DNA from: a bacterium
GTDB taxonomy: Bacteria; Patescibacteriota; Patescibacteriia; Patescibacteriales; GWC2-42-12
Length of the DNA stretch: 49,820 bases
Reading direction: 5' to 3'
NCBI GenBank assembly: GCA_043807825.1
Contig: JAZDFM010000029.1
Span: 1-49,820, forward strand
Part shown: positions 30,477-37,760 of the stretch, piece by piece
Layout: every line of letters starts with the position of its first letter
How positions within the stretch are numbered: position 1 is the first letter of the stretch
Position numbers and translations under genes: made by a program
Notes under the pieces: generated by a model
What the model was told of the DNA's origin: nothing
What the model saw: only the letters and a program-made list of their open reading frames with translations
Database searches by the model: none

Positions 30477-31403
30477 TTATAATCCGTATTTTTTTATATT
30501 TTCATCGGCTAATTTTTGGATGTAAGCTATTTGCGATTTGCCGCGTTCATCTTTGAATAAATGCTTAAAACGCCCTTGCGGTTTTAAATAATCTTCAACC
30601 GGCTGGCGTTTTTCCGGCAGTTTGATCACTTCTCCAAGCTGTCCGTTAACATATTCCACAGCCGGATAGATTCCGGTTAAAACCGCCAATTTGGCGATGT
30701 TTAATGTTTGATTTGGTTCAATTTTCCATCCGGGAACGCATGGCGACAAAATTTGGACATAAGACGGGCCTTGGGTTTCGGCGGCTTTTTTTATTTTTTT
30801 GATTATATCCAGCGGATAAGCGGCTGTGGTTTGCGCCGCGTATTTAAGGCCATGCGCCAAAGCTATGGCTATCATGTCTTTTTTCATGAAATGAGATCCT
30901 GCCGGCGTGGTTGTGGTATTGGCCGCCCAGGGAGTCGCCGCGCTTGCCTGCGCCCCGGTATTCATATAGCCTTCATTGTCATAGCAGATATAAATGATAT
31001 TTTCGCCCCTTTCCCACATTCCGCTGATAAGACCCAAGCCAATGTCAAACGAGCCTCCGTCTCCGCCTTGCGCGACAACTTTAATACCCCCTTTAATAAA
31101 GGGGGGCAGGGGGGATTTATTTTTTTCTTTGTGATCCAGAGCCGCTCTGATTCCCGAAGCTACGGCGGCCGCGTTTTCAAACAAAGAATGGATCCATGGC
31201 ATGCCCCAGCTTGATTCGGGATAAGGAGTGGTGACAACTTCCAAGCATCCGGTGGCATTGGCGATGATCGTATTCGGTCCGAGCGTGTCCGCTACTAATC
31301 GCGCCGCGATTATTTGAGCGCATCCGGCGCAACCGCGATGGCCCGGGGAGAGGAGCGAGGGCTTGGTGTTTGCGTTTTTTTTGGCTGTTATTGTATTGTT
31401 CAT
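30477..31403 (-). CDS. porB: pyruvate/2-oxoacid:ferredoxin oxidoreductase beta subunit (TPP-binding)
   Basis: GHRGCAGCAQ, GCLEV..TPYP, GGDGG..DIG and YDNE.YMNTG motifs of POR/OFOR beta subunits. Confidence 0.9.
   Translation of the reverse strand: MNNTITAKKNANTKPSLLSPGHRGCAGCAQIIAARLVADTLGPNTIIANATGCLEVVTTPYPESSWGMPWIHSLFENAAAVASGIRAALDHKEKNKSPLPPFIKGGIKVVAQGGDGGSFDIGLGLISGMWERGENIIYICYDNEGYMNTGAQASAATPWAANTTTTPAGSHFMKKDMIAIALAHGLKYAAQTTAAYPLDIIKKIKKAAETQGPSYVQILSPCVPGWKIEPNQTLNIAKLAVLTGIYPAVEYVNGQLGEVIKLPEKRQPVEDYLKPQGRFKHLFKDERGKSQIAYIQKLADENIKKYGL
31085..31118. repeat. palindromic element inserted in frame within porB
   Basis: ccccctttaataaaggggg followed by caggggggattt. It encodes KSPLPPFIKGG just before the conserved VVAQGGDGG block. 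Confidence 0.75.
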
Positions 31404-31427
31404 ATTTTATTAGAAATTAGAAATTTT

Positions 31428-31646
31428 TTAATTCGTTTCCATTACTTGCTTCTTAATGCCTCCGAGTCTGATTTTATCCGTTTGGCCGATAAATTTGGTC
31501 GCGTTCAGTATTTCAATTAAAACCGGTTTTTTGTTTTTTGACAAGTGAATTATGAAGTTGCCGAATTCCAAACAATGGTCAATCGGATCTTTTGACAATT
31601 CCCATGATATTAAGTTTGCATCAAGATCGTATCGCATATTACGCAT
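31428..31646 (-). CDS. DUF2283-like small protein (putative antitoxin partner)
   Basis: MRYDLDANLISWELS...VLIEILNATKF resembles the YD.e.D.ly / GiEil pattern of DUF2283. It overlaps the upstream DUF4258-like gene by 8 nt. Confidence 0.55.
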   Translation of the reverse strand: MRNMRYDLDANLISWELSKDPIDHCLEFGNFIIHLSKNKKPVLIEILNATKFIGQTDKIRLGGIKKQVMETN

Positions 31647-31860
31647 TTTTTATCGGAAAAAATGTGATTATTTTAAAAATATCCCCGTCTTTTTTATAAA
31701 TAACTTTTATATTTTCTTTTTGAGCGGCAAAAAGCCCGTCTTTTTTTCCTGTTTTATCGGGCGCGCCTATCGCGTCTTCAATTTGTTCGCGCGTAAAAAA
31801 TATTTTATGCTTATTTAAGATATCAAATTTTGATTCCGCGTATTTAGTAAAGTAAAGCAT
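31639..31860 (-). CDS. DUF4258-like small protein (putative toxin)
   Basis: 73 aa. The FTKYAESKFDILNKHKIFFTREQIEDAI layout resembles DUF4258, which commonly pairs with DUF2283. Confidence 0.5.
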   Translation of the reverse strand: MLYFTKYAESKFDILNKHKIFFTREQIEDAIGAPDKTGKKDGLFAAQKENIKVIYKKDGDIFKIITFFPIKNA

Positions 31861-31862
31861 AT

Positions 31863-32102
31863 TTATGAGTTATAAGTATGATCATTTTTTCGCTCTATGG
31901 TTAAAATTGATATTTTTTCATCGCCGAGGCGATAAATAATTCTGATTTTTCCTTTACGGACGCGGTAAATATCCTGTCGGCCTTTTAGTTTTTTTATATC
32001 AAGATTATCAAAATCACGGCAATTGATTTTAATTAGAATCGTTTTAATAATTTCTTTTTCTTCGGCCGCCATTTTTTTCAGCGTTTTGGCGATTTTATCC
32101 AT
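31863..32102 (-). CDS. RelE/ParE-family type II toxin
   Basis: 79 aa. KKLKGRQDIYRVRKGKIRIIYRL....ISILTIERKNDHTY matches the RelE/ParE core pattern. It starts 3 nt after the Phd-like gene. Confidence 0.7.
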   Translation of the reverse strand: MDKIAKTLKKMAAEEKEIIKTILIKINCRDFDNLDIKKLKGRQDIYRVRKGKIRIIYRLGDEKISILTIERKNDHTYNS

Positions 32103-32105
32103 AGG

Positions 32106-32318
32106 TTATAAACGCGATAATATTTCTTTAATATCAACGCCGCCTTTTTTTATTTTGGTGAAGTCAATAATTTCCTCCCATTGTTCTTCCTGAAGAGGAG
32201 ATATGCGAAACAAAGGCTTTGATTGCTTAAAAACTATAAATGATTCGCCATTGGCGATGCGTTTAGCGTAATCAATCATATTTTCCCTTAAAGTTTTTAA
32301 ACCGACGGTATTTTCCAT
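32106..32318 (-). CDS. Phd/YefM-family antitoxin
   Basis: 70 aa. GLKTLRENMIDYAKRIANGESFIVFKQSKPLFRI is the Phd/YefM N-terminal fold pattern. Confidence 0.7.
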   Translation of the reverse strand: MENTVGLKTLRENMIDYAKRIANGESFIVFKQSKPLFRISPLQEEQWEEIIDFTKIKKGGVDIKEILSRL

Positions 32319-32324
32319 AATTTT

Positions 32325-32377
32325 AAAGTTAATTTTTAAATTAACTTTAGTTTAACAAAAAATTAACTTATTGTCAA
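32325..32377 (-). promoter_or_regulatory. promoter (TTGACA-17-TAAACT) with 24-bp palindromic operator for the Phd/RelE pair
   Basis: On the minus strand, ttgaca lies at 32372-32377 and taaact at 32349-32354. The palindrome aaagttaatttttaaattaacttt (32325-32348, 11-bp arms) sits between the -10 box and the ATG. An extra half-site aattaactt is at 32361-32369. Confidence 0.65.
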
Positions 32378-32390
32378 TTGAAAAATATTT

Positions 32391-33473
32391 TTAAAAGTTG
32401 CACCATTTGCTGTTAGCTTCCCACGGGCCCCAACCCGAACCGCCGGCTAACCTTTTGGCGTTGCTGACGCTTATAGCCGGATTGGAGGCGGCGGCCACGC
32501 ATTTATTGTATAAAACAACATCGGTTACAGAGCAACTCGGACTGCTATTGACCCATGCTTTGTTGCCGAAAGCGTCAGGGCAATTCAGTTTGTTGTTGTT
32601 TTCATCTATCAAATAATTCGCCGACAAATTAAATTGGAACAAACCCCAAACAGCGTAATAATCGCCATTGCCGCATTTGGTTAAAGGATTTTTTGCATCG
32701 GCTTTGCCGGAACTTTCCGCCATACAGATGGCTGACGCTTCTCCGGCCTTATCGCCGAAAGCGGACATTTTGAATATGGAGCATTCGCCGGTTTCCGTCG
32801 GCTTGCATTGTCTGGAAAATTCTTCCGTGTTTTTCGGTTCCGGAATTTGACCGGCTATCTGAATATTGATCGGATTGAAATTAACTAAAGCAGGATTAAC
32901 TTGATAAAGAATAGTATAAGAGCATAAAGCTATGATTAGTCCGGTTAGGCTCGCGCCGATCCACGCTTTGGCTTCGCCGATCATGGTGGCGCTGCCGCCG
33001 GCGATTATCCAGAGAACGCCACCGACCATCAAAACCACGGCCGCTAAAATGCCGACTATGCCGATGGCGTATTTGTAAATTCCGGCGATGTATTCGCCGA
33101 TCCATGGGTAACTGCAGACTTTTTTGCCGTTTTGCTCCACGCATTTTATGGCGCTGCCTTTGGTTAAAATAAGGCCGGGTATGTCTATTTGAAATTGAAA
33201 ATCAGGAATTTTTATTTCCGGCATAGTGTCGTTGACTTCGTGCGGTATAGTGGTTTCCACAACGCAAGAATAAGTTGCTTTTCCGCCGATAGTGCTTCCG
33301 CCGGTTTGAATGCATAAATAGCCGCTGTCGCATGTTTTGTCGCCAAGGCCGGAGCAAGGTTTTCCTATTATCATTTCCGCCGAAACTGAAGGTGAAAATG
33401 AAAAAAATAATAACAGCAAGCTGAAAAATTGCGCGACAATAACTATGTATGAAATTTTATTTTTTGGATCCAT
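32391..33473 (-). CDS. exported protein: N-terminal Cys-containing region, TrbC/VirB2-like pilin hairpin, C-terminal lysozyme-like domain
   Basis: Signal peptide ending SVSA. Two-TM core IYKYAIGIVGILAAVVLMVGGVLWIIAGG...GEAKAWIGASLTGLIIALCSY fits the type IV secretion pilin pattern. The C-terminal ICMAESSG...VWGLFQFN...GWGPWEANSKWC with 8 Cys resembles the lysozyme/SLT fold. Confidence 0.7.
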   Translation of the reverse strand: MDPKNKISYIVIVAQFFSLLLLFFSFSPSVSAEMIIGKPCSGLGDKTCDSGYLCIQTGGSTIGGKATYSCVVETTIPHEVNDTMPEIKIPDFQFQIDIPGLILTKGSAIKCVEQNGKKVCSYPWIGEYIAGIYKYAIGIVGILAAVVLMVGGVLWIIAGGSATMIGEAKAWIGASLTGLIIALCSYTILYQVNPALVNFNPINIQIAGQIPEPKNTEEFSRQCKPTETGECSIFKMSAFGDKAGEASAICMAESSGKADAKNPLTKCGNGDYYAVWGLFQFNLSANYLIDENNNKLNCPDAFGNKAWVNSSPSCSVTDVVLYNKCVAAASNPAISVSNAKRLAGGSGWGPWEANSKWCNF

Positions 33474-33476
33474 AAA

Positions 33477-34328
33477 TTAGTTGCACATTGCGCCTGATTG
33501 TGTTGATTCGCAATCTCCGTTGCAACATTCATAATTGGCGAATAGCGGGTCAGAGCATAAAAAATTGGTATTTTTGCATGGTTCGCATTTTTTATTTTTG
33601 CAATATCCTTTTCCTCCTTTTGGGGTATTGCAAATTTCATGGTCGTTTTCGCTATTGCAATCCGATGGCAATTCTTCATTGCAAACATATACTCCGTTAA
33701 CGCTTTCGCAATTTCCTCCGCAACATTCTGGATTTGATGAGCATTTGAAACCTTGTTTCAAGCATTGTTGGCACTCTCCATTTTGGCAATATCCGCTTTG
33801 GTTATTAACGACGCAATAATTTCCGTCTTGGCTGCAATCATAATAAATATTCGCGCTGTTTGTTTTTTTATCTGCAACTTGTTGAATCGCCGTTGTTTTT
33901 AAATCTACCAGTGCCGGATTGACCGTGGCTAAAATCACATAAGAGCATAAAGCGATAAGCAAACCGGCGAACGAAGCGCCTATCCACGCCTTGGCTTCGC
34001 CGATGGCGGCGGAATTTCCTCCGGCTATAATCCACATTACGCCGCCGACCATCAAAACCACGGCCGCCAGAATGCCGACTATGCCGATGGCGTATTTGTA
34101 AATAGCTCTGATGTAGTTTGCTATGTTGCCTGTGCTTTTGTCGCTTGAATCAAATTTATAATCTCCGACCTGAACTTGCGGAATGAATTCAATGCCATCA
34201 TCAGCGGCTTGTCCGGCGTTCGGCGCGAAAGTTAAAAATAATAAGCAAGAAAGCTGAAAAATAAAAATCGCCAGGAAAAGAATTGTTAAAATTTTCGGAA
34301 AATGTTTTAGCATAAATTTTTGGATCAT
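33477..34328 (-). CDS. exported protein: TrbC/VirB2-like pilin hairpin with C-terminal tandem 10-Cys knottin-like modules
   Basis: Signal peptide ending AGQA. Same two-TM core as the downstream paralog (55 of 66 residues identical). The C-terminal 119 aa hold 20 Cys in two modules with conserved spacing. Confidence 0.7.
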   Translation of the reverse strand: MIQKFMLKHFPKILTILFLAIFIFQLSCLLFLTFAPNAGQAADDGIEFIPQVQVGDYKFDSSDKSTGNIANYIRAIYKYAIGIVGILAAVVLMVGGVMWIIAGGNSAAIGEAKAWIGASFAGLLIALCSYVILATVNPALVDLKTTAIQQVADKKTNSANIYYDCSQDGNYCVVNNQSGYCQNGECQQCLKQGFKCSSNPECCGGNCESVNGVYVCNEELPSDCNSENDHEICNTPKGGKGYCKNKKCEPCKNTNFLCSDPLFANYECCNGDCESTQSGAMCN

Positions 34329-34359
34329 AGATCAAGCCCGGGATGACTGGAGCAGGGGA

Positions 34360-34632
34360 TTATAAATGCCGGTAGATATCGTGATTGCCAATTGAGATAA
34401 AAAGGATGTCGCCGTTTTTCTGTCGTTCAAAAATAATTCTATAGTTGGCGTTGATGGAAATTGACCAAATACATTTAAATTCACCGCGCAGTTCATGCAG
34501 GCGCAGGGAAGGATGAAGCGGGTTTGCTTTAAAAATTTTTTCTTTTTTTATAGCAATGTCTAAAAGTTCTTTAGGCAATTTTTTTAAATTTTTAATAAAA
34601 CTTGTTGAATATTCAATCTTTTTAACAATCAT
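34360..34632 (-). CDS. RelE/ParE-family type II toxin (mRNA interferase-like)
   Basis: 90 aa. NPLHPSLRLHELRGEFKCIWSISINANYRIIFER...ILFISIGNHDIY matches the RelE/YafQ-type pattern. It overlaps the antitoxin gene by 4 nt. Confidence 0.75.
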   Translation of the reverse strand: MIVKKIEYSTSFIKNLKKLPKELLDIAIKKEKIFKANPLHPSLRLHELRGEFKCIWSISINANYRIIFERQKNGDILFISIGNHDIYRHL

Positions 34633-34859
34633 AAAAGATAGGCCAAGGAGTCGGCTTTTATTGTTTTTCCGTTTTTATATTCTTCCCGAGACTCTATGAT
34701 AGCTGCCATTAATTCTTTGTCAGATATAGTATTATTATTGTCCGCTTCAAAAAGATATTTAAAATATTCGCTGATTGAAGCAAAGCCGCTGTGTTTTATA
34801 TGGTTTTTTAATTTTTTTACCATGTTTTCCGGCAGAGAAACGCTTATGACTTGTCTCAT
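34629..34859 (-). CDS. ribbon-helix-helix antitoxin
   Basis: 76 aa. The N-terminal VISVSLPENMVKKLKNHIK...SISEYFKYLF strand-helix-helix layout fits an RHH fold. It lies upstream of and is translationally coupled to the RelE-like gene. Confidence 0.65.
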   Translation of the reverse strand: MRQVISVSLPENMVKKLKNHIKHSGFASISEYFKYLFEADNNNTISDKELMAAIIESREEYKNGKTIKADSLAYLL

Positions 34860-34888
34860 AAATATATTGGTTAATTATTATGTTATAA

Positions 34889-34917
34889 TTGTATTACAAT
34901 CGTAATACAATGTCAAG
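34889..34917 (-). promoter_or_regulatory. promoter (TTGACA-17-TACAAT) with palindromic operator for the RHH/RelE pair
   Basis: On the minus strand, ttgaca lies at 34912-34917 and tacaat at 34889-34894. The inverted repeat gtattac/gtaatac (34892-34898 and 34903-34909) overlaps the -10 hexamer and the spacer. Confidence 0.7.
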
Positions 34918-34945
34918 ATTCAATCTATTCTTGCCGCTGGCTTCT

Positions 34946-34970
34946 GGATTCCCGCCTGCCAGGAATGACG
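34946..34970 (+). repeat. REP-like palindromic unit, GGATTCC...GGAATGACG variant
   Basis: ggattcccgcctgccaggaatgacg has the same frame (GATTxC loop GxAATGAC) as the GAGATTGC family and sits immediately beside a family member. Confidence 0.6.
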
Positions 34971-34977
34971 AAACCGT

Positions 34978-35019
34978 GAGATTGCTTCGTCGGACGAGTA
35001 CGGCCTCCTCGCAATGACA
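34978..35019 (+). repeat. REP-like unit, GAGATTGC...GCAATGACA family
   Basis: gagattgcttcgtcggacgagtacggcctcctcgcaatgaca ends 2 nt from the porA stop codon. Confidence 0.8.
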
Positions 35020-35021
35020 AA

Positions 35022-36200
35022 CTATTTGCCTACAAACTGTGCTCTATCGTTTTTTTTATTTGCTTTTTTAATTATTTTTTTAATCATCTCAACCGTAATA
35101 TCCCTGCCACCAAGGCCGACAATGAAACTGGAGACATTGGCATTTGTCGCGCCTTGAACAACGGCTTTGATGTCGGAAGCCAGCGGTCCGATTTGCCCCA
35201 GCGAAATTGATTTGTCTATGACAGCGATGTTTTTCGCGCGTTTTATTATTTTTAAAATTTGTTCTGATGGAAAAGGTCGGAAGCATTTAATTTTCAAGAT
35301 GCCGATGTCCGAGCCGGCGGCGGCGTGTTTTATGGTTCCGCAAACCGATCCCATGGCGATGACTATGGTGTCAGGGTTTTTAGGGCCTATATATTCCATT
35401 AAACCATTTTCTATTCTTAGTTTTAATTGGTTTAATTTTGAATTTTGAATTTTGAATTTTGAATTGAATGCCGTAAACTCTTTGTTGATGGCGTTAAGGC
35501 TATTCTCCAAATCTTCGTGCAGTTCTTGCCGGATTTCCATATAATGGGCCGGAGTAGCCAAAGCTCCCAAGGTGGCGGGGTTGGCCGGATCCAAATATTG
35601 GCCGGGTTCGGGATTGTAATCAGGAAGATATTTTTTAATCTGTTCGGCTTCGGGTATGATAACCGGCTCGTAAGTGTGCGTCATGATGAATCCGTCAACA
35701 TTGACCATAACCGGAATTTTTAATTTTTCGGCGATTTTGAAAGCCATAATATGTTGGTTGACGGCTTCCTGATGGTTTTCCGCGAATAGCAAAATCCATC
35801 CCGCGTCCCTGATCGCCATCACATCCTGCTGATCGTTCCAGATATTTATTGGCGCTGATACGGCTCTGTTGGCGCATGTCATGACAATCGGCAATCTCAT
35901 TCCCGCGATATTGTAAATCACTTCGGCCATAAGCAAAAGCCCTTGCGAGCTTGTGGCGCTGTAAGCGCGCGCTCCGGCGGCGCTGGCTCCGGCCACGATA
36001 GAAGCGGCCGCGAATTCGCTCTCGGCCCTCACATATTCATAATCAGCCTGTCCGTCGGCTTTGAATTTTGCCAGGTCTTCAACAATATGGGTTTGAGGAG
36101 TGATTGGGTAGGCGGAAATCACGGCGGGGCGGATATTTTTAACTGTTAGGGCGATAGCGCGAGAGCCTTCAAGTATTTGTTGTTTATTTTTATTATTCAT
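35022..36200 (-). CDS. porA: pyruvate/2-oxoacid:ferredoxin oxidoreductase alpha subunit
   Basis: GSRAIALTVKN...AYPITPQT...SE.AA....GAS.AG.R..TATSSQG pattern. The ATG at 36200 (MNNKNKQQILEG) is preferred. The ORF-track extension to 36446 runs through a REP element and overlaps porD. Confidence 0.9.
   Translation of the reverse strand: MNNKNKQQILEGSRAIALTVKNIRPAVISAYPITPQTHIVEDLAKFKADGQADYEYVRAESEFAAASIVAGASAAGARAYSATSSQGLLLMAEVIYNIAGMRLPIVMTCANRAVSAPINIWNDQQDVMAIRDAGWILLFAENHQEAVNQHIMAFKIAEKLKIPVMVNVDGFIMTHTYEPVIIPEAEQIKKYLPDYNPEPGQYLDPANPATLGALATPAHYMEIRQELHEDLENSLNAINKEFTAFNSKFKIQNSKLNQLKLRIENGLMEYIGPKNPDTIVIAMGSVCGTIKHAAAGSDIGILKIKCFRPFPSEQILKIIKRAKNIAVIDKSISLGQIGPLASDIKAVVQGATNANVSSFIVGLGGRDITVEMIKKIIKKANKKNDRAQFVGK
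35434..35461. repeat. heptanucleotide repeat (aattttg x4 plus a partial copy) inside porA
   Basis: Four exact tandem copies on the plus strand encode FNSKFKIQNSKL in an apparently expanded inter-domain linker. Confidence 0.85.
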
Positions 36201-36214
36201 ATAAAATTGTTCGC

Positions 36215-36269
36215 GAGATTGCTTCGTCGTCCCCCACCAAAATTTGGTGGGGGACTTCTCGCAATGACA
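36215..36269 (+). repeat. REP-like unit, GAGATTGC...GCAATGACA family, with nested perfect hairpin
   Basis: gagattgcttcgtcgt + cccccaccaaaatttggtggggg + acttctcgcaatgaca, in the 76-nt porD-porA spacer. Confidence 0.85.
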
Positions 36270-36276
36270 TGAGGAA

Positions 36277-36525
36277 TTATTTTTCTTCAGGTTCCATTTC
36301 AATGGCTTTAAACGGGCATTCAGCGGCGCATAATCCGCAGCCTTTGCAATATGACAGATCGCCATCATAATATTTTTCGCCGGTTTGATGAATCGCGTTT
36401 TCAGGGCAGATTCTTTGGCAAATTCCGCAAGCCGAACATTTGTCATGCAAAAATTTCGGTTTAATTGATCTCCATGAACCTGTTTTATTTATTATTGAGG
36501 TAGATGGTTTAACGGCAATTTTCAT
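36277..36525 (-). CDS. porD: oxidoreductase delta subunit, 2x[4Fe-4S] ferredoxin
   Basis: CSACGICQRICP and CKGCGLCAAECP cluster motifs, 82 aa. Confidence 0.9.
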   Translation of the reverse strand: MKIAVKPSTSIINKTGSWRSIKPKFLHDKCSACGICQRICPENAIHQTGEKYYDGDLSYCKGCGLCAAECPFKAIEMEPEEK

Positions 36526-36534
36526 AAATAAAAT

Positions 36535-37074
36535 TTAATTTTGATACGCCATTTCTATGGCTTTGATATTTTTATCAATCAAATCTTGATTTCCGGAAAA
36601 TTTTTCTTCAATGGCCTGTTTAAGAGATTCAAGGCTGACTATGCCGGTTATTTTCGCGAAAGCTCCCAAAATAACGGTGTTAACTATATTTTTCCCGATT
36701 ATTTCCAAAGCTATTTTGGACGCGTCAATGATATGAATATTTGATGCCGGCAATTTGATTTTCAATTCCCGTTTGTCTTTGGCCGTATTGATGATAGCGA
36801 TGGTTTTTTTACCCGCGCCCTTGGCCACGTCAATGCTTTCAAGCAAACTGGCGTCCTGAATAATCAAAATATCCGGATTTTTAATTTGTTCTCTGGTTAT
36901 TATCGGATTATCGTCCACGCGCGCGAACGATTCCACGGGCGCGCCAGTCCTTTCCACGCCGAAAGATGGAAAAGCTTGCGCCTGCCGGCCGCTTTTAAAC
37001 GCGGCTATGGCTATCAATTCGGCGGCGGTTACAACTCCTTGGCCTCCTCGGCCGTGAATTCTTATTTGTATCAT
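36535..37074 (-). CDS. porG: oxidoreductase gamma subunit
   Basis: IRIHGRGGQGVVTAAELIA...FPSFG.ERTGAP is the POR/OFOR gamma signature. Confidence 0.9.
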   Translation of the reverse strand: MIQIRIHGRGGQGVVTAAELIAIAAFKSGRQAQAFPSFGVERTGAPVESFARVDDNPIITREQIKNPDILIIQDASLLESIDVAKGAGKKTIAIINTAKDKRELKIKLPASNIHIIDASKIALEIIGKNIVNTVILGAFAKITGIVSLESLKQAIEEKFSGNQDLIDKNIKAIEMAYQN

Positions 37075-37082
37075 AAAAATTT

Positions 37083-37760
37083 TTATTTTTTCAAATCCTC
37101 AATTATTTTAACAAACACATCATACGGTATGTCTCCCGATATTTTATAGCCGTTGATAAAGTAAGTCGGCGTGCCAGCGTTTCCGAATGATTGCCCGTCA
37201 GACAAGTCTTTTTGAATTTGCGGAAGATATTTTTTTTGATCAAGGCAATTTTTAAATTTCGCGGCATCGGCGCCGATTTGTCCGGCTAAAGACATAAGAT
37301 GATCGGCGGTGTTCACGCCTTGGTTTTGGAACAGCTTGTCATGCATTTGCCAAAATAACCCTTGTTCGCCGGCGCATCGCCCGGCTAACGCCAAATCGGT
37401 TGAATATTCTTGCATTATCGGGTAATCGCGCCAAATGAATTGGACTTCGTTTTTGTATTTTAAGCTTATTTCCCTGGAAGTTTTAAATGATTGCGCGCAC
37501 GCGGAGCACGCGAAATCTCCGAATTCAACTATTGTTATTTTCGCGTTTTCGGAGCCTGTCCAATAATGTTCTCCTTTGGAAGCATTATATGTTTGTCCGC
37601 TTAATTTTGTTTCGGATTCTTTCAGCTTAATTTGGGCGTTTTTTATTTCACTTATGAAATAAAAAATACTGGCGGAGACAAAAAATAAAATTATGGCGGA
37701 AAAAATAATCGCCAAAACGCCTTTCCATGTTTTAATCCAAGGTTTTTTTTCGTTTTCCAT
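37083..37760 (-). CDS. membrane-anchored DsbA-family thiol:disulfide oxidoreductase
   Basis: N-terminal TM anchor. VEFGDFACSACAQ carries a CxxC motif, and GTPTYFING is a cis-Pro-type motif of the DsbA fold. Confidence 0.8.
   Translation of the reverse strand: MENEKKPWIKTWKGVLAIIFSAIILFFVSASIFYFISEIKNAQIKLKESETKLSGQTYNASKGEHYWTGSENAKITIVEFGDFACSACAQSFKTSREISLKYKNEVQFIWRDYPIMQEYSTDLALAGRCAGEQGLFWQMHDKLFQNQGVNTADHLMSLAGQIGADAAKFKNCLDQKKYLPQIQKDLSDGQSFGNAGTPTYFINGYKISGDIPYDVFVKIIEDLKK

Follow-up and report, generated by a model that had tools for sequence, protein, structure and literature searches.

A pilin-hairpin protein with an SLT_3 lysozyme-like domain in a groundwater Patescibacteria bacterium, a candidate exported peptidoglycan-cleaving enzyme

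What does a lysozyme-like domain do at the end of a pilin-like protein, and whose cell wall would it cut? The question is raised by a gene on the minus strand of contig JAZDFM010000029.1 (assembly GCA_043807825.1), a stretch of DNA whose full 49,820 nucleotides are referred to here as the window. The source organism is an ultrasmall groundwater Patescibacteria bacterium with a genome of ~0.83 Mb (92% complete) of the Patescibacteria type, and Patescibacteria depend on host cells. A preliminary description, made from the letters of the window, had marked positions 32394-32807 as a lysozyme-like or lytic transglycosylase-like domain and had proposed that it might remodel the producer's own wall or breach that of a host or prey. 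Based on profile searches, structure prediction and comparison of orthologous loci, our best overall explanation, to which we assign a probability of roughly one half, is that the gene encodes an exported, pilin-anchored enzyme that cleaves the glycan strands of peptidoglycan, with the wall of a neighbouring cell as the favoured target. The parts of the gene are as follows.

32391-33473, minus strand: whole gene, encoding a 360-residue fusion of a pilin hairpin and an SLT_3 domain (open reading frame list, Pfam T4SS_pilin and SLT_3 matches, 44 full-length homologues)
32391-32393, minus strand: stop codon of the fusion gene
33378-33473, minus strand: predicted Sec signal peptide, residues 1-32 (...SPSVSA/E), with a basic N-region, a hydrophobic core and a small-x-small site
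33237-33377, minus strand: hypervariable Cys-containing N-terminal head, residues 33-79 (median identity 8.5% across the 44 homologues, as for the identities below)
33081-33236, minus strand: conserved stem ahead of the hairpin, residues 80-131 (VNDTMP...PWIGEYIAG; median identity 36.5%)
32898-33080, minus strand: VirB2-like two-helix membrane hairpin, residues 132-192 (TM1, short loop, TM2; PF18895 match and hydropathy; median identity 58%)
32808-32897, minus strand: 30-residue linker from TM2 to the enzyme domain, residues 193-222 (median identity 40%)
32394-32807, minus strand: SLT_3 lysozyme-like domain, residues 223-360 (PF18896 match, model and conservation; median identity 63%)
32712-32717, minus strand: Glu253-Ser254, proposed catalytic acid and partner (Glu codon GAA at 32715-32717)
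32628-32645, minus strand: GLFQFN, residues 277-282, proposed substrate-groove motif in the beta region (conservation and alignment to C-type lysozymes)

The anatomy given in the preliminary description holds in every particular: its interval maps exactly to residues 223-360 of the 360-residue reading frame, the motifs it quoted (ASAICMAESSGKADAKNP, YYAVWGLFQFN and GGSGWGPWEANSKWCNF) all lie within those residues, the domain has eight cysteines (223, 231, 250, 267, 298, 314, 325 and 358), and it is fused to the second of two adjacent pilin-core genes, whose N-terminal part has the PF18895 hairpin. The SLT_3 domain is the best-conserved part of the protein, at 63% median identity vs. 8.5% for the N-terminal head. 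Ahead of it, hydropathy marks two segments (residues 128-166 and 170-197), and the T4SS_pilin profile (PF18895), which many of the homologues also carry, matches residues 124-189, scoring 23.5 bits in hmmscan and, in the genome scan, 26.7 bits, which exceeds the cut-off. The protein has the two features that we look for in a VirB2-like pilin, namely a predicted signal peptide and a two-helix hydrophobic hairpin matching this profile.

The identity of the C-terminal domain is carried by its relatives rather than by its own score. Against Pfam SLT_3 (PF18896, "Lysozyme like domain") the window copy reaches 22.5-23.0 bits (E 1.1e-4 to 1.6e-4), below the gathering cut-off of 27 bits. The same profile matches 28 of 29 close homologues and 46 of 47 diverse relatives (best E 4.8e-11), and distant members tied to the window copy by the domain profile (E 1e-24 to 1e-27) score 37.3, 32.4 and 29.2 bits against the full SLT_3 model. 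Because these relatives exceed the cut-off, we assign the window domain to SLT_3 by transitivity. Among the same 47 relatives, classical SLT (PF01464) matches 14, weakly, and the C-type lysozyme family Lys (PF00062) matches one; NCBIfam and PHROGs left the domain unmatched. Precomputed Pfam annotation places both the pilin and the SLT_3 family on homologues P0013 and P0029. The preliminary description had named profile similarity to the lysozyme-like clan beforehand as the test of its proposal, and such similarity is present in this form.

The proposed catalytic motif is conserved across the family. The domain is carried by 44 close homologues, and a domain-profile search of 1.84 billion representatives (clusters at 50% identity) returned 837 clusters at E <= 1e-3, 338 of them at E <= 1e-10. 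In an alignment of 187 diverse relatives (clusters below 50% identity), which is the basis of all residue frequencies given here, Glu253 is invariant (187/187), as are Gly277 and Gln280 (100% each), with Ser254 at 99%, Leu278 at 97%, Phe279 at 96%, Asn282 at 99%, Cys298 at 98%, Cys325 at 99% and Trp351 at 99%. With the domain shared by the 44 homologues and the 837 clusters and with these residues nearly invariant, the ES and GLFQ.N motifs are not a product of chance.

We additionally built two AlphaFold models of the domain, the second from the 47-sequence alignment. This second model has a pLDDT of 91.1 (no lower than 88 in any of the five models) and a pTM of 0.84; pLDDT is low at the beginning of the modelled segment, in the linker region. 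Glu253 (residue 49 of the segment) stands at the C-terminal end of a 21-residue helix (30-50), followed by short strands that contain GLFQFN and then by three helices. In the model this order, of a helix ending in Glu, a small beta region and further helices, is the layout of the lysozymes, so that the positioned, putative catalytic acid anticipated by the preliminary description is found in a confident prediction, at the canonical helix end and ahead of the beta groove region. The motif order that it had compared with the lysozyme superfamily is likewise borne out by the SLT_3 profile evidence, by the conserved ES and GLFQ.N and by this layout.

Searches against solved and predicted structures give matches that are individually weak and collectively uniform. 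Foldseek against the PDB returned 16 weak matches (E >= 0.26; TM 0.37-0.46 by query, up to 0.54 by target), among them 13 C-type lysozymes (hen, pheasant, turkey, human and shrimp) and 2 MltF. Against viral models (BFVD), the named matches were mostly SLT, LT_GEWL and phage tail lysozyme (E >= 0.47). With no match below E 0.1 in two PDB runs and one BFVD run, we use these results as a pattern, not as proof. A profile of the 47 sequences searched against all PDB sequences gave 23 weak matches, 22 of them C-type lysozymes, aligned over ES...G(I/L)FQIN and the C-terminal W..W...C segment, while PDB sequence searches with the single domain or with a narrow 29-sequence profile gave noise or nothing. 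The preliminary reading survives the tests it had set itself because this uniform structural pattern and the Pfam result stand together.

The strongest evidence in this analysis for peptidoglycan cleavage as the selected function comes from other members of the same genus. Orthologues of this second pilin occupy the same slot between porA and porB and have a near-identical hairpin and a stem that is kept throughout, whereas their C-terminal heads differ and the N-terminal head is missing or different. The slots read as follows.

G000 (window): SLT_3 directly after the linker, 22.5-23 bits
G304: SLT_3 directly after the linker, 20.8 bits
G309: SLT_3 after a Cys-rich spacer, 34.4 bits
G307: SLT_3 after a Cys-rich spacer, 18.3 bits
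G310: classical SLT head, 49 bits
G302: classical SLT head, 77 bits
G305: 3D domain head (MltA/YuiC-type fold), 31.5 bits
G301: 3D domain head, 20.5 bits
G303 and G306: head with no Pfam match
L027 8503-9753 (minus strand), L037 2342-3535 (minus), L026 8434-9381 (minus) and L025 5357-6517 (plus): the orthologues with SLT heads (49 and 77 bits) and 3D heads (31.5 and 20.5 bits)

A glycan-strand-cleaving domain from one of three Pfam families is thus held by 8 of the 10 readable same-genus slots, and the SLT heads in the genus read ES...GLMQ...AYN. As three lytic families in one slot amount to non-orthologous replacement by functional analogues, the series supports peptidoglycan cleavage as the function under selection.

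Beyond the genus, a pilin-core HMM built from the homologues matches 101 of 143 distant representatives; in nearly all other non-fragment representatives, a two-TM hairpin precedes SLT_3 by 40-60 residues. The domain itself is patchily distributed, being found in 10 of 301 phylum genomes and 4 of 11 same-genus genomes and in none of 30 other genomes sampled from the same family or order; the 96-97% of phylum genomes that are without it still have pilins.

Two further observations concern the heads. Some 20 representatives of 850-1135 residues (P0072, P0077, P0092, P0098, P0107, P0180 and others) have very large N-terminal regions that Pfam does not match and close with a two-TM hairpin and SLT_3; they look like giant-headed versions of the same design. 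Four pilins with Pfam-unmatched C-terminal heads (L029 3608-4852, plus strand; L039 190-1035, plus; L043 1701-2900, minus; L046 996-2267, plus) show by eye a motif of the type H..G.(A/C)VD...H(I/V)HISV that recalls LAS/M15 zinc peptidases. We considered such an assignment for the heads of G303, G306, G313 and G311 and left them unassigned, a weak match to the Hedgehog N-domain being found for G303 only (E 0.12-0.4).

Where the domain would act follows from the rest of the protein. We place it outside the cell because of the signal peptide, four co-varying cysteine pairs and a neighbouring DsbA-like gene. Cys231 and Cys250 are both present in 140 of the 187 sequences, both absent in 44 and mixed in 3; Cys267 and Cys314 are both present in 148, both absent in 34 and mixed in 5; Cys298 and Cys325 are near-invariant and are paired on that ground; and Cys223 and Cys358, left over, are a probable N-to-C clamp. 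The protein would be exported via Sec and its signal peptide cleaved, by our reading after residue 32, and the VirB2-like hairpin would then seat it in the membrane. In VirB2/TrbC pilins both termini lie outside after removal of the signal peptide, and by analogy we infer the same for the fusion protein, with the hypervariable N-terminal head and, on its 30-residue linker, the disulfide-stabilised SLT_3 domain both displayed at the cell surface. There the domain would cut peptidoglycan in its MurNAc-GlcNAc backbone, with the helix-end residue Glu253 as single general acid/base, the GLFQFN strand forming the substrate groove and 1,6-anhydro-MurNAc as the expected product. The part of the hairpin would be to anchor and display the domain, either within the membrane or, should it polymerise, on a pilus of the type IV secretion system (T4SS) kind. 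For the core of this proposal, an extracellular, disulfide-bonded domain that cleaves glycan strands with Glu253 as its acid while tethered by a pilin hairpin, our confidence is high. The identity of the domain, its conservation, the predicted fold layout, the synteny and the replacement of heads are results of this analysis, and topology, catalysis, product and target are deductions.

Which wall is cut is less certain. We give slightly under even odds to the claim that the enzyme is directed mainly at a neighbouring (host) cell, whose wall it would cut at the contact site. We favour it because a hypervariable N-terminal head sits on the same polypeptide, because heads turn over rapidly within the genus and the domain is patchily distributed, because a housekeeping lytic transglycosylase, MltG, is present elsewhere in the genome, and because sister hairpin proteins carry adhesin-type heads (Ig, TIG and fn3). 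The genome has nine T4SS_pilin matches, and two of the nine, hairpin proteins of 576 and 1788 residues (contig C31, L033 2128-3858 and 3771-9137, plus strand), have Big_5, TIG and fn3 domains after the hairpin, which gives them adhesin-like, Ig-type heads and argues that the hairpin carries diverse extracellular heads in this organism.

The strongest competitor, and one that we would put somewhat lower, directs the enzyme at the producer's own peptidoglycan, where it would open space for a T4SS channel or pilus, standing in for VirB1, PrgK or TraG while joined in cis to a VirB2-like subunit. A peptidoglycan hydrolase is required in monoderm T4SSs, and a recognisable VirB1 is missing from most Patescibacteria that have homologues of VirB2 (PMC12102498), both of which speak for such a role. 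So do the composition of this genome, in which no PF01464 or PF06725 (3D) match was found and the fusion gene was the only SLT_3 match in the genome scan, and the T4SS core on contig C6 (L034 3133-6213, plus strand), near whose VirB4 and PrgI no hydrolase was recognised among the reading frames scanned. The short linker of 30 residues, the location of the gene within a conserved housekeeping cluster and the recognisable glycan-cleaving head in 8 of 10 slots point the same way. Set against this role are the lack of linkage between the gene and the T4SS genes in this genome, the presence of MltG, and the absence of the domain both from the 30 sampled family and order genomes and from nearly all genomes of the phylum, which keep their pilins; moreover, a fast exchange of head families and a hypervariable N-terminal head would be unexpected for an enzyme acting on its producer's own invariant wall. 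On balance we lean toward a host target over a self target, and the two are not mutually exclusive.

Several results weigh against an exported, pilin-anchored, host-directed enzyme. No structural match is significant alone (best Foldseek E 0.26, TM 0.37-0.54), the window copy's SLT_3 score is under the 27-bit cut-off, and the surroundings of Glu253 were judged from secondary structure and the disulfide pairs from cysteine co-variation. The fusion gene is not next to T4SS genes, VirB4 and PrgI being on another contig (C6), and the conserved housekeeping cluster around it is as compatible with a role on the producer's own wall as with one on a host's. The search for RNA runs yielded none and returned groundwater DNA metagenomes instead (9% of sampled words of the two pilin genes), and in the literature we found no assayed enzyme of the SLT_3 family.

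The chemistry of the domain bears on a further alternative, which we consider improbable: that it is a true homologue of the C-type lysozymes (GH22), with retaining Glu/Asp hydrolysis. The likeness is real, in that hen egg-white, human and other C-type lysozymes are the best matches of the domain in both structure and PDB sequence, hhalign against the hen and human enzymes gives p = 0.001 in the same register, with ES, G(L/I)FQ(F/I)N and W..W...C aligned, and both hmmsearch and hhalign place Glu253-Ser254 on Glu35-Ser36 and GLFQFN on GI(F/L)QIN. The shared layout, (F/A)ES...G(I/L)(L/F)Q(I/F)N...W..W...C, comes with a similar size, eight cysteines and a probable terminal clamp. The statistics are weak, with E of 0.3-1.7, TM of up to 0.54 and an hhalign probability of only 11-21%, and three differences count against GH22 membership, which we reject on the first two. 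The position matching lysozyme Asp52 is Ser in 120 and Val in 63 of the 187 sequences, and conservation is lacking at the acidic residue shortly before it (Asp271 in the window protein), with nearby acids varying; the cysteine pairing by co-variation differs from the C-type pattern of 6-127, 30-115, 64-80 and 76-94; and Pfam Lys matches 1 of 47 relatives vs. 46 for SLT_3 and 14 for SLT. The window protein is also bacterial and membrane-tethered. Of the C-type resemblance noted in the preliminary description, what reproduces (22 of 23 PDB profile matches and 13 of 16 Foldseek matches) holds at the level of the superfamily only.

The comparison with family 1 lytic transglycosylases (GH23; SLT, PF01464, such as E. 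coli Slt70 and MltE and the T4SS protein VirB1) is closer in mechanism. Both have Glu-Ser at the end of a helix, a GL(M/F)Q strand, a single acid and a lysozyme-like fold; SLT weakly matches 14 of 47 members, and a bona fide SLT replaces SLT_3 on the orthologous pilin in sister species. The window domain differs in its PF01464 score of 13.5-13.8 bits, below the cut-off of 21.3, in its four predicted disulfides, and in that no AYNxG was seen, only Ala339, within SNAKRL, being conserved at the expected site (98%). The SLT signature that had been proposed from the sequence is present in its ES and GLFQ elements, and the score and the AYNxG speak against membership of PF01464. Both comparisons made in the preliminary description are thus right in part, the order of the motifs agreeing with GH23 and GH22 enzymes alike. 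The absence of a conserved second catalytic acid favours a mechanism of the lytic transglycosylase type, and from the alignment the domain is most likely a lytic transglycosylase rather than a retaining C-type lysozyme; a goose-type hydrolytic mechanism is also compatible with the sequence.

Least probable is that the fold is a non-catalytic module for binding glycan or peptidoglycan and the pilin an adhesin, not an enzyme: inactive lysozyme-fold proteins such as alpha-lactalbumin exist, other hairpin proteins of this genome bear adhesin-like heads and the activity of the domain is a prediction, all of which count in its favour, but Glu-Ser and GLFQ.N are essentially invariant across the 187 sequences and the alternative heads in the same slot belong to catalytic families with intact motifs.

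The genomic setting of the fusion gene is given by the following features.

33477-34328, minus strand: first pilin-core gene, 283 residues (PF18895), 3 nucleotides upstream of the fusion gene
34360-34859, minus strand: RHH antitoxin and RelE/YafQ/ParE-like toxin pair (Pfam), adjoining the pilin genes
35022-36446: porA, upstream of the pilin pair
30477-31403: porB, on the other side of the pilin pair
37083-37760, minus strand: DsbA-like thioredoxin gene (Pfam Thioredoxin_4 and DSBA)
31428-32318, minus strand: four small reading frames between the fusion gene and porB, none with a Pfam match

The first pilin-core protein has the same hairpin with a different Cys-rich C-terminal head, and a pilin gene occupies this first position in every relative examined. 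With the DsbA-like gene and porG upstream of porA, the DsbA-like gene heads a conserved cluster, dsbA-porG-porD-porA-pilin-pilin-porB, and has the same position in 5/5 distant loci and on every same-genus or same-family contig that reaches there; its product is likely the oxidase for the Cys-rich exported heads. All five contigs with homologues at 52-78% domain identity carry the dsbA-por-pilin cluster, usually in the order dsbA, porG, porD, porA, pilin, porB, pilin-SLT_3, with one variant reading porA, pilin, pilin-SLT_3, porB. All seven same-genus genomes with a contig covering the slot have one or more pilin-core genes between porA and porB, with two wherever the contig extends far enough, and one or two pilins are present there in most of the other genomes from the genus and the family. 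The conservation of dsbA/porG/porD/porA/[pilin][pilin]/porB spans 30477-37760 of the window (minus strand) and loci L006-L010, L025-L032 and L035-L049. One metagenome-assembled record with the same dsbA-por-pilin cluster, CAZCQW010000002.1 (L004/L008), is titled "uncultured Gammaproteobacteria bacterium"; its neighbourhood is that of the other relatives' loci, and the taxonomic label looks wrong.

A recent accessory insertion was also considered as the origin of the 3.6-kb stretch that separates porA from porB; for the pilin genes we rejected it, given the two-pilin slot in 5/5 distant loci and in most same-genus and same-family genomes with a contig covering it. By this comparison the pilin genes are long-standing members of the por operon, and only the toxin-antitoxin pairs look added. 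The two pilin paralogues share 58 of 80 residues across the core, and their TM1-coding stretches (33025-33080 and 34048-34103) are identical at 54 of 56 nucleotides, which suggests gene conversion or a recombination handle.

Linkage to a T4SS cluster, as for a VirB1-type enzyme, is not found: the gene is enclosed by porA and porB, and its 49.8-kb contig has no VirB4. The T4SS core on contig C6 consists of a PrgI/VirB3-like reading frame, a 255-residue frame with a weak match to the TraC N-domain and a 635-residue P-loop VirB4-like frame, and VirB4 may be split there into two frames. The genome-contig scan returned only 4 loci.

How far does the protein resemble known systems? Pfam holds Patescibacteria proteins with the same two domains, T4SS_pilin (PF18895) and SLT_3 (PF18896), in the same order; compared with these, the window copy scores just under both curated cut-offs, and its gene lies, in this lineage, inside the dsbA-por cluster and not beside T4SS genes. 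It resembles VirB2/TrbC conjugative pilins in having a predicted signal peptide and then two hydrophobic helices, and in the predicted placement of both its ends outside the cell, in a genome that has a VirB4 ATPase and a PrgI/VirB3 homologue; classical pilins, however, are ~70-120 residues long with no enzyme domain, whereas the window protein adds a 47-residue N-terminal head and a 138-residue C-terminal enzyme. The hydrolases of monoderm T4SSs, such as PrgK of pCF10 and TraG of pIP501, are likewise membrane-anchored, modular wall-cutters whose lytic domains vary between systems, and their machines are of the VirB4 type, with the same MPF-FATA ancestry that has been proposed for Patescibacteria (PMC12102498). 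They have an ordinary TM anchor and are encoded within the T4SS operon, and it is the donor's own wall that they cut; the window protein is anchored by its pilin module and encoded elsewhere. Relative to GH23 enzymes, too, the anchor differs, being a pilin hairpin rather than a lipid or none, with the gene outside a T4SS operon.

The pilin and SLT_3 architecture is already known as a database object, and a 2025 census of Patescibacteria T4SSs that used PF18895 reported that most genomes with VirB2-like pilins are without VirB1 and that pilus biogenesis there apparently needs none (PMC12102498). Our literature search found no description of SLT_3 or of a pilin-lysozyme or pilin-transglycosylase fusion in Patescibacteria (CPR), and no experimental work on any protein of this architecture. 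What this window adds is a conserved slot in the dsbA-por cluster, a within-genus series of SLT_3, SLT and 3D heads, a predicted disulfide map and C-type lysozymes as the solved folds closest to the domain; the SLT_3 family looks intermediate between bacterial transglycosylases and C-type lysozymes.

A more speculative extension, which in its full form we consider unlikely, treats the hairpin as a modular display scaffold: the orthologous pilin of the dsbA-por cluster would carry interchangeable lytic heads (SLT_3, SLT, 3D/MltA-like and possibly peptidase) together with a hypervariable recognition head, the hairpin DNA would serve as recombination handle, and head turnover would track the host's wall chemistry or lysozyme inhibitors, making the protein a determinant of host range that breaches the host wall at the contact site.

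In the one Patescibacteria lineage tested genetically, the T4SS and pilin arrays are reportedly essential. A wall-cutting domain built into a pilin would be a concrete answer to the question of how a Patescibacteria T4SS machine crosses a cell wall, and the exchange of SLT_3, SLT and 3D heads on one scaffold offers comparative evidence that wall cleavage is a selected function. At ~140 residues, autonomous and highly conserved, the domain is a tractable first target for SLT_3 biochemistry.

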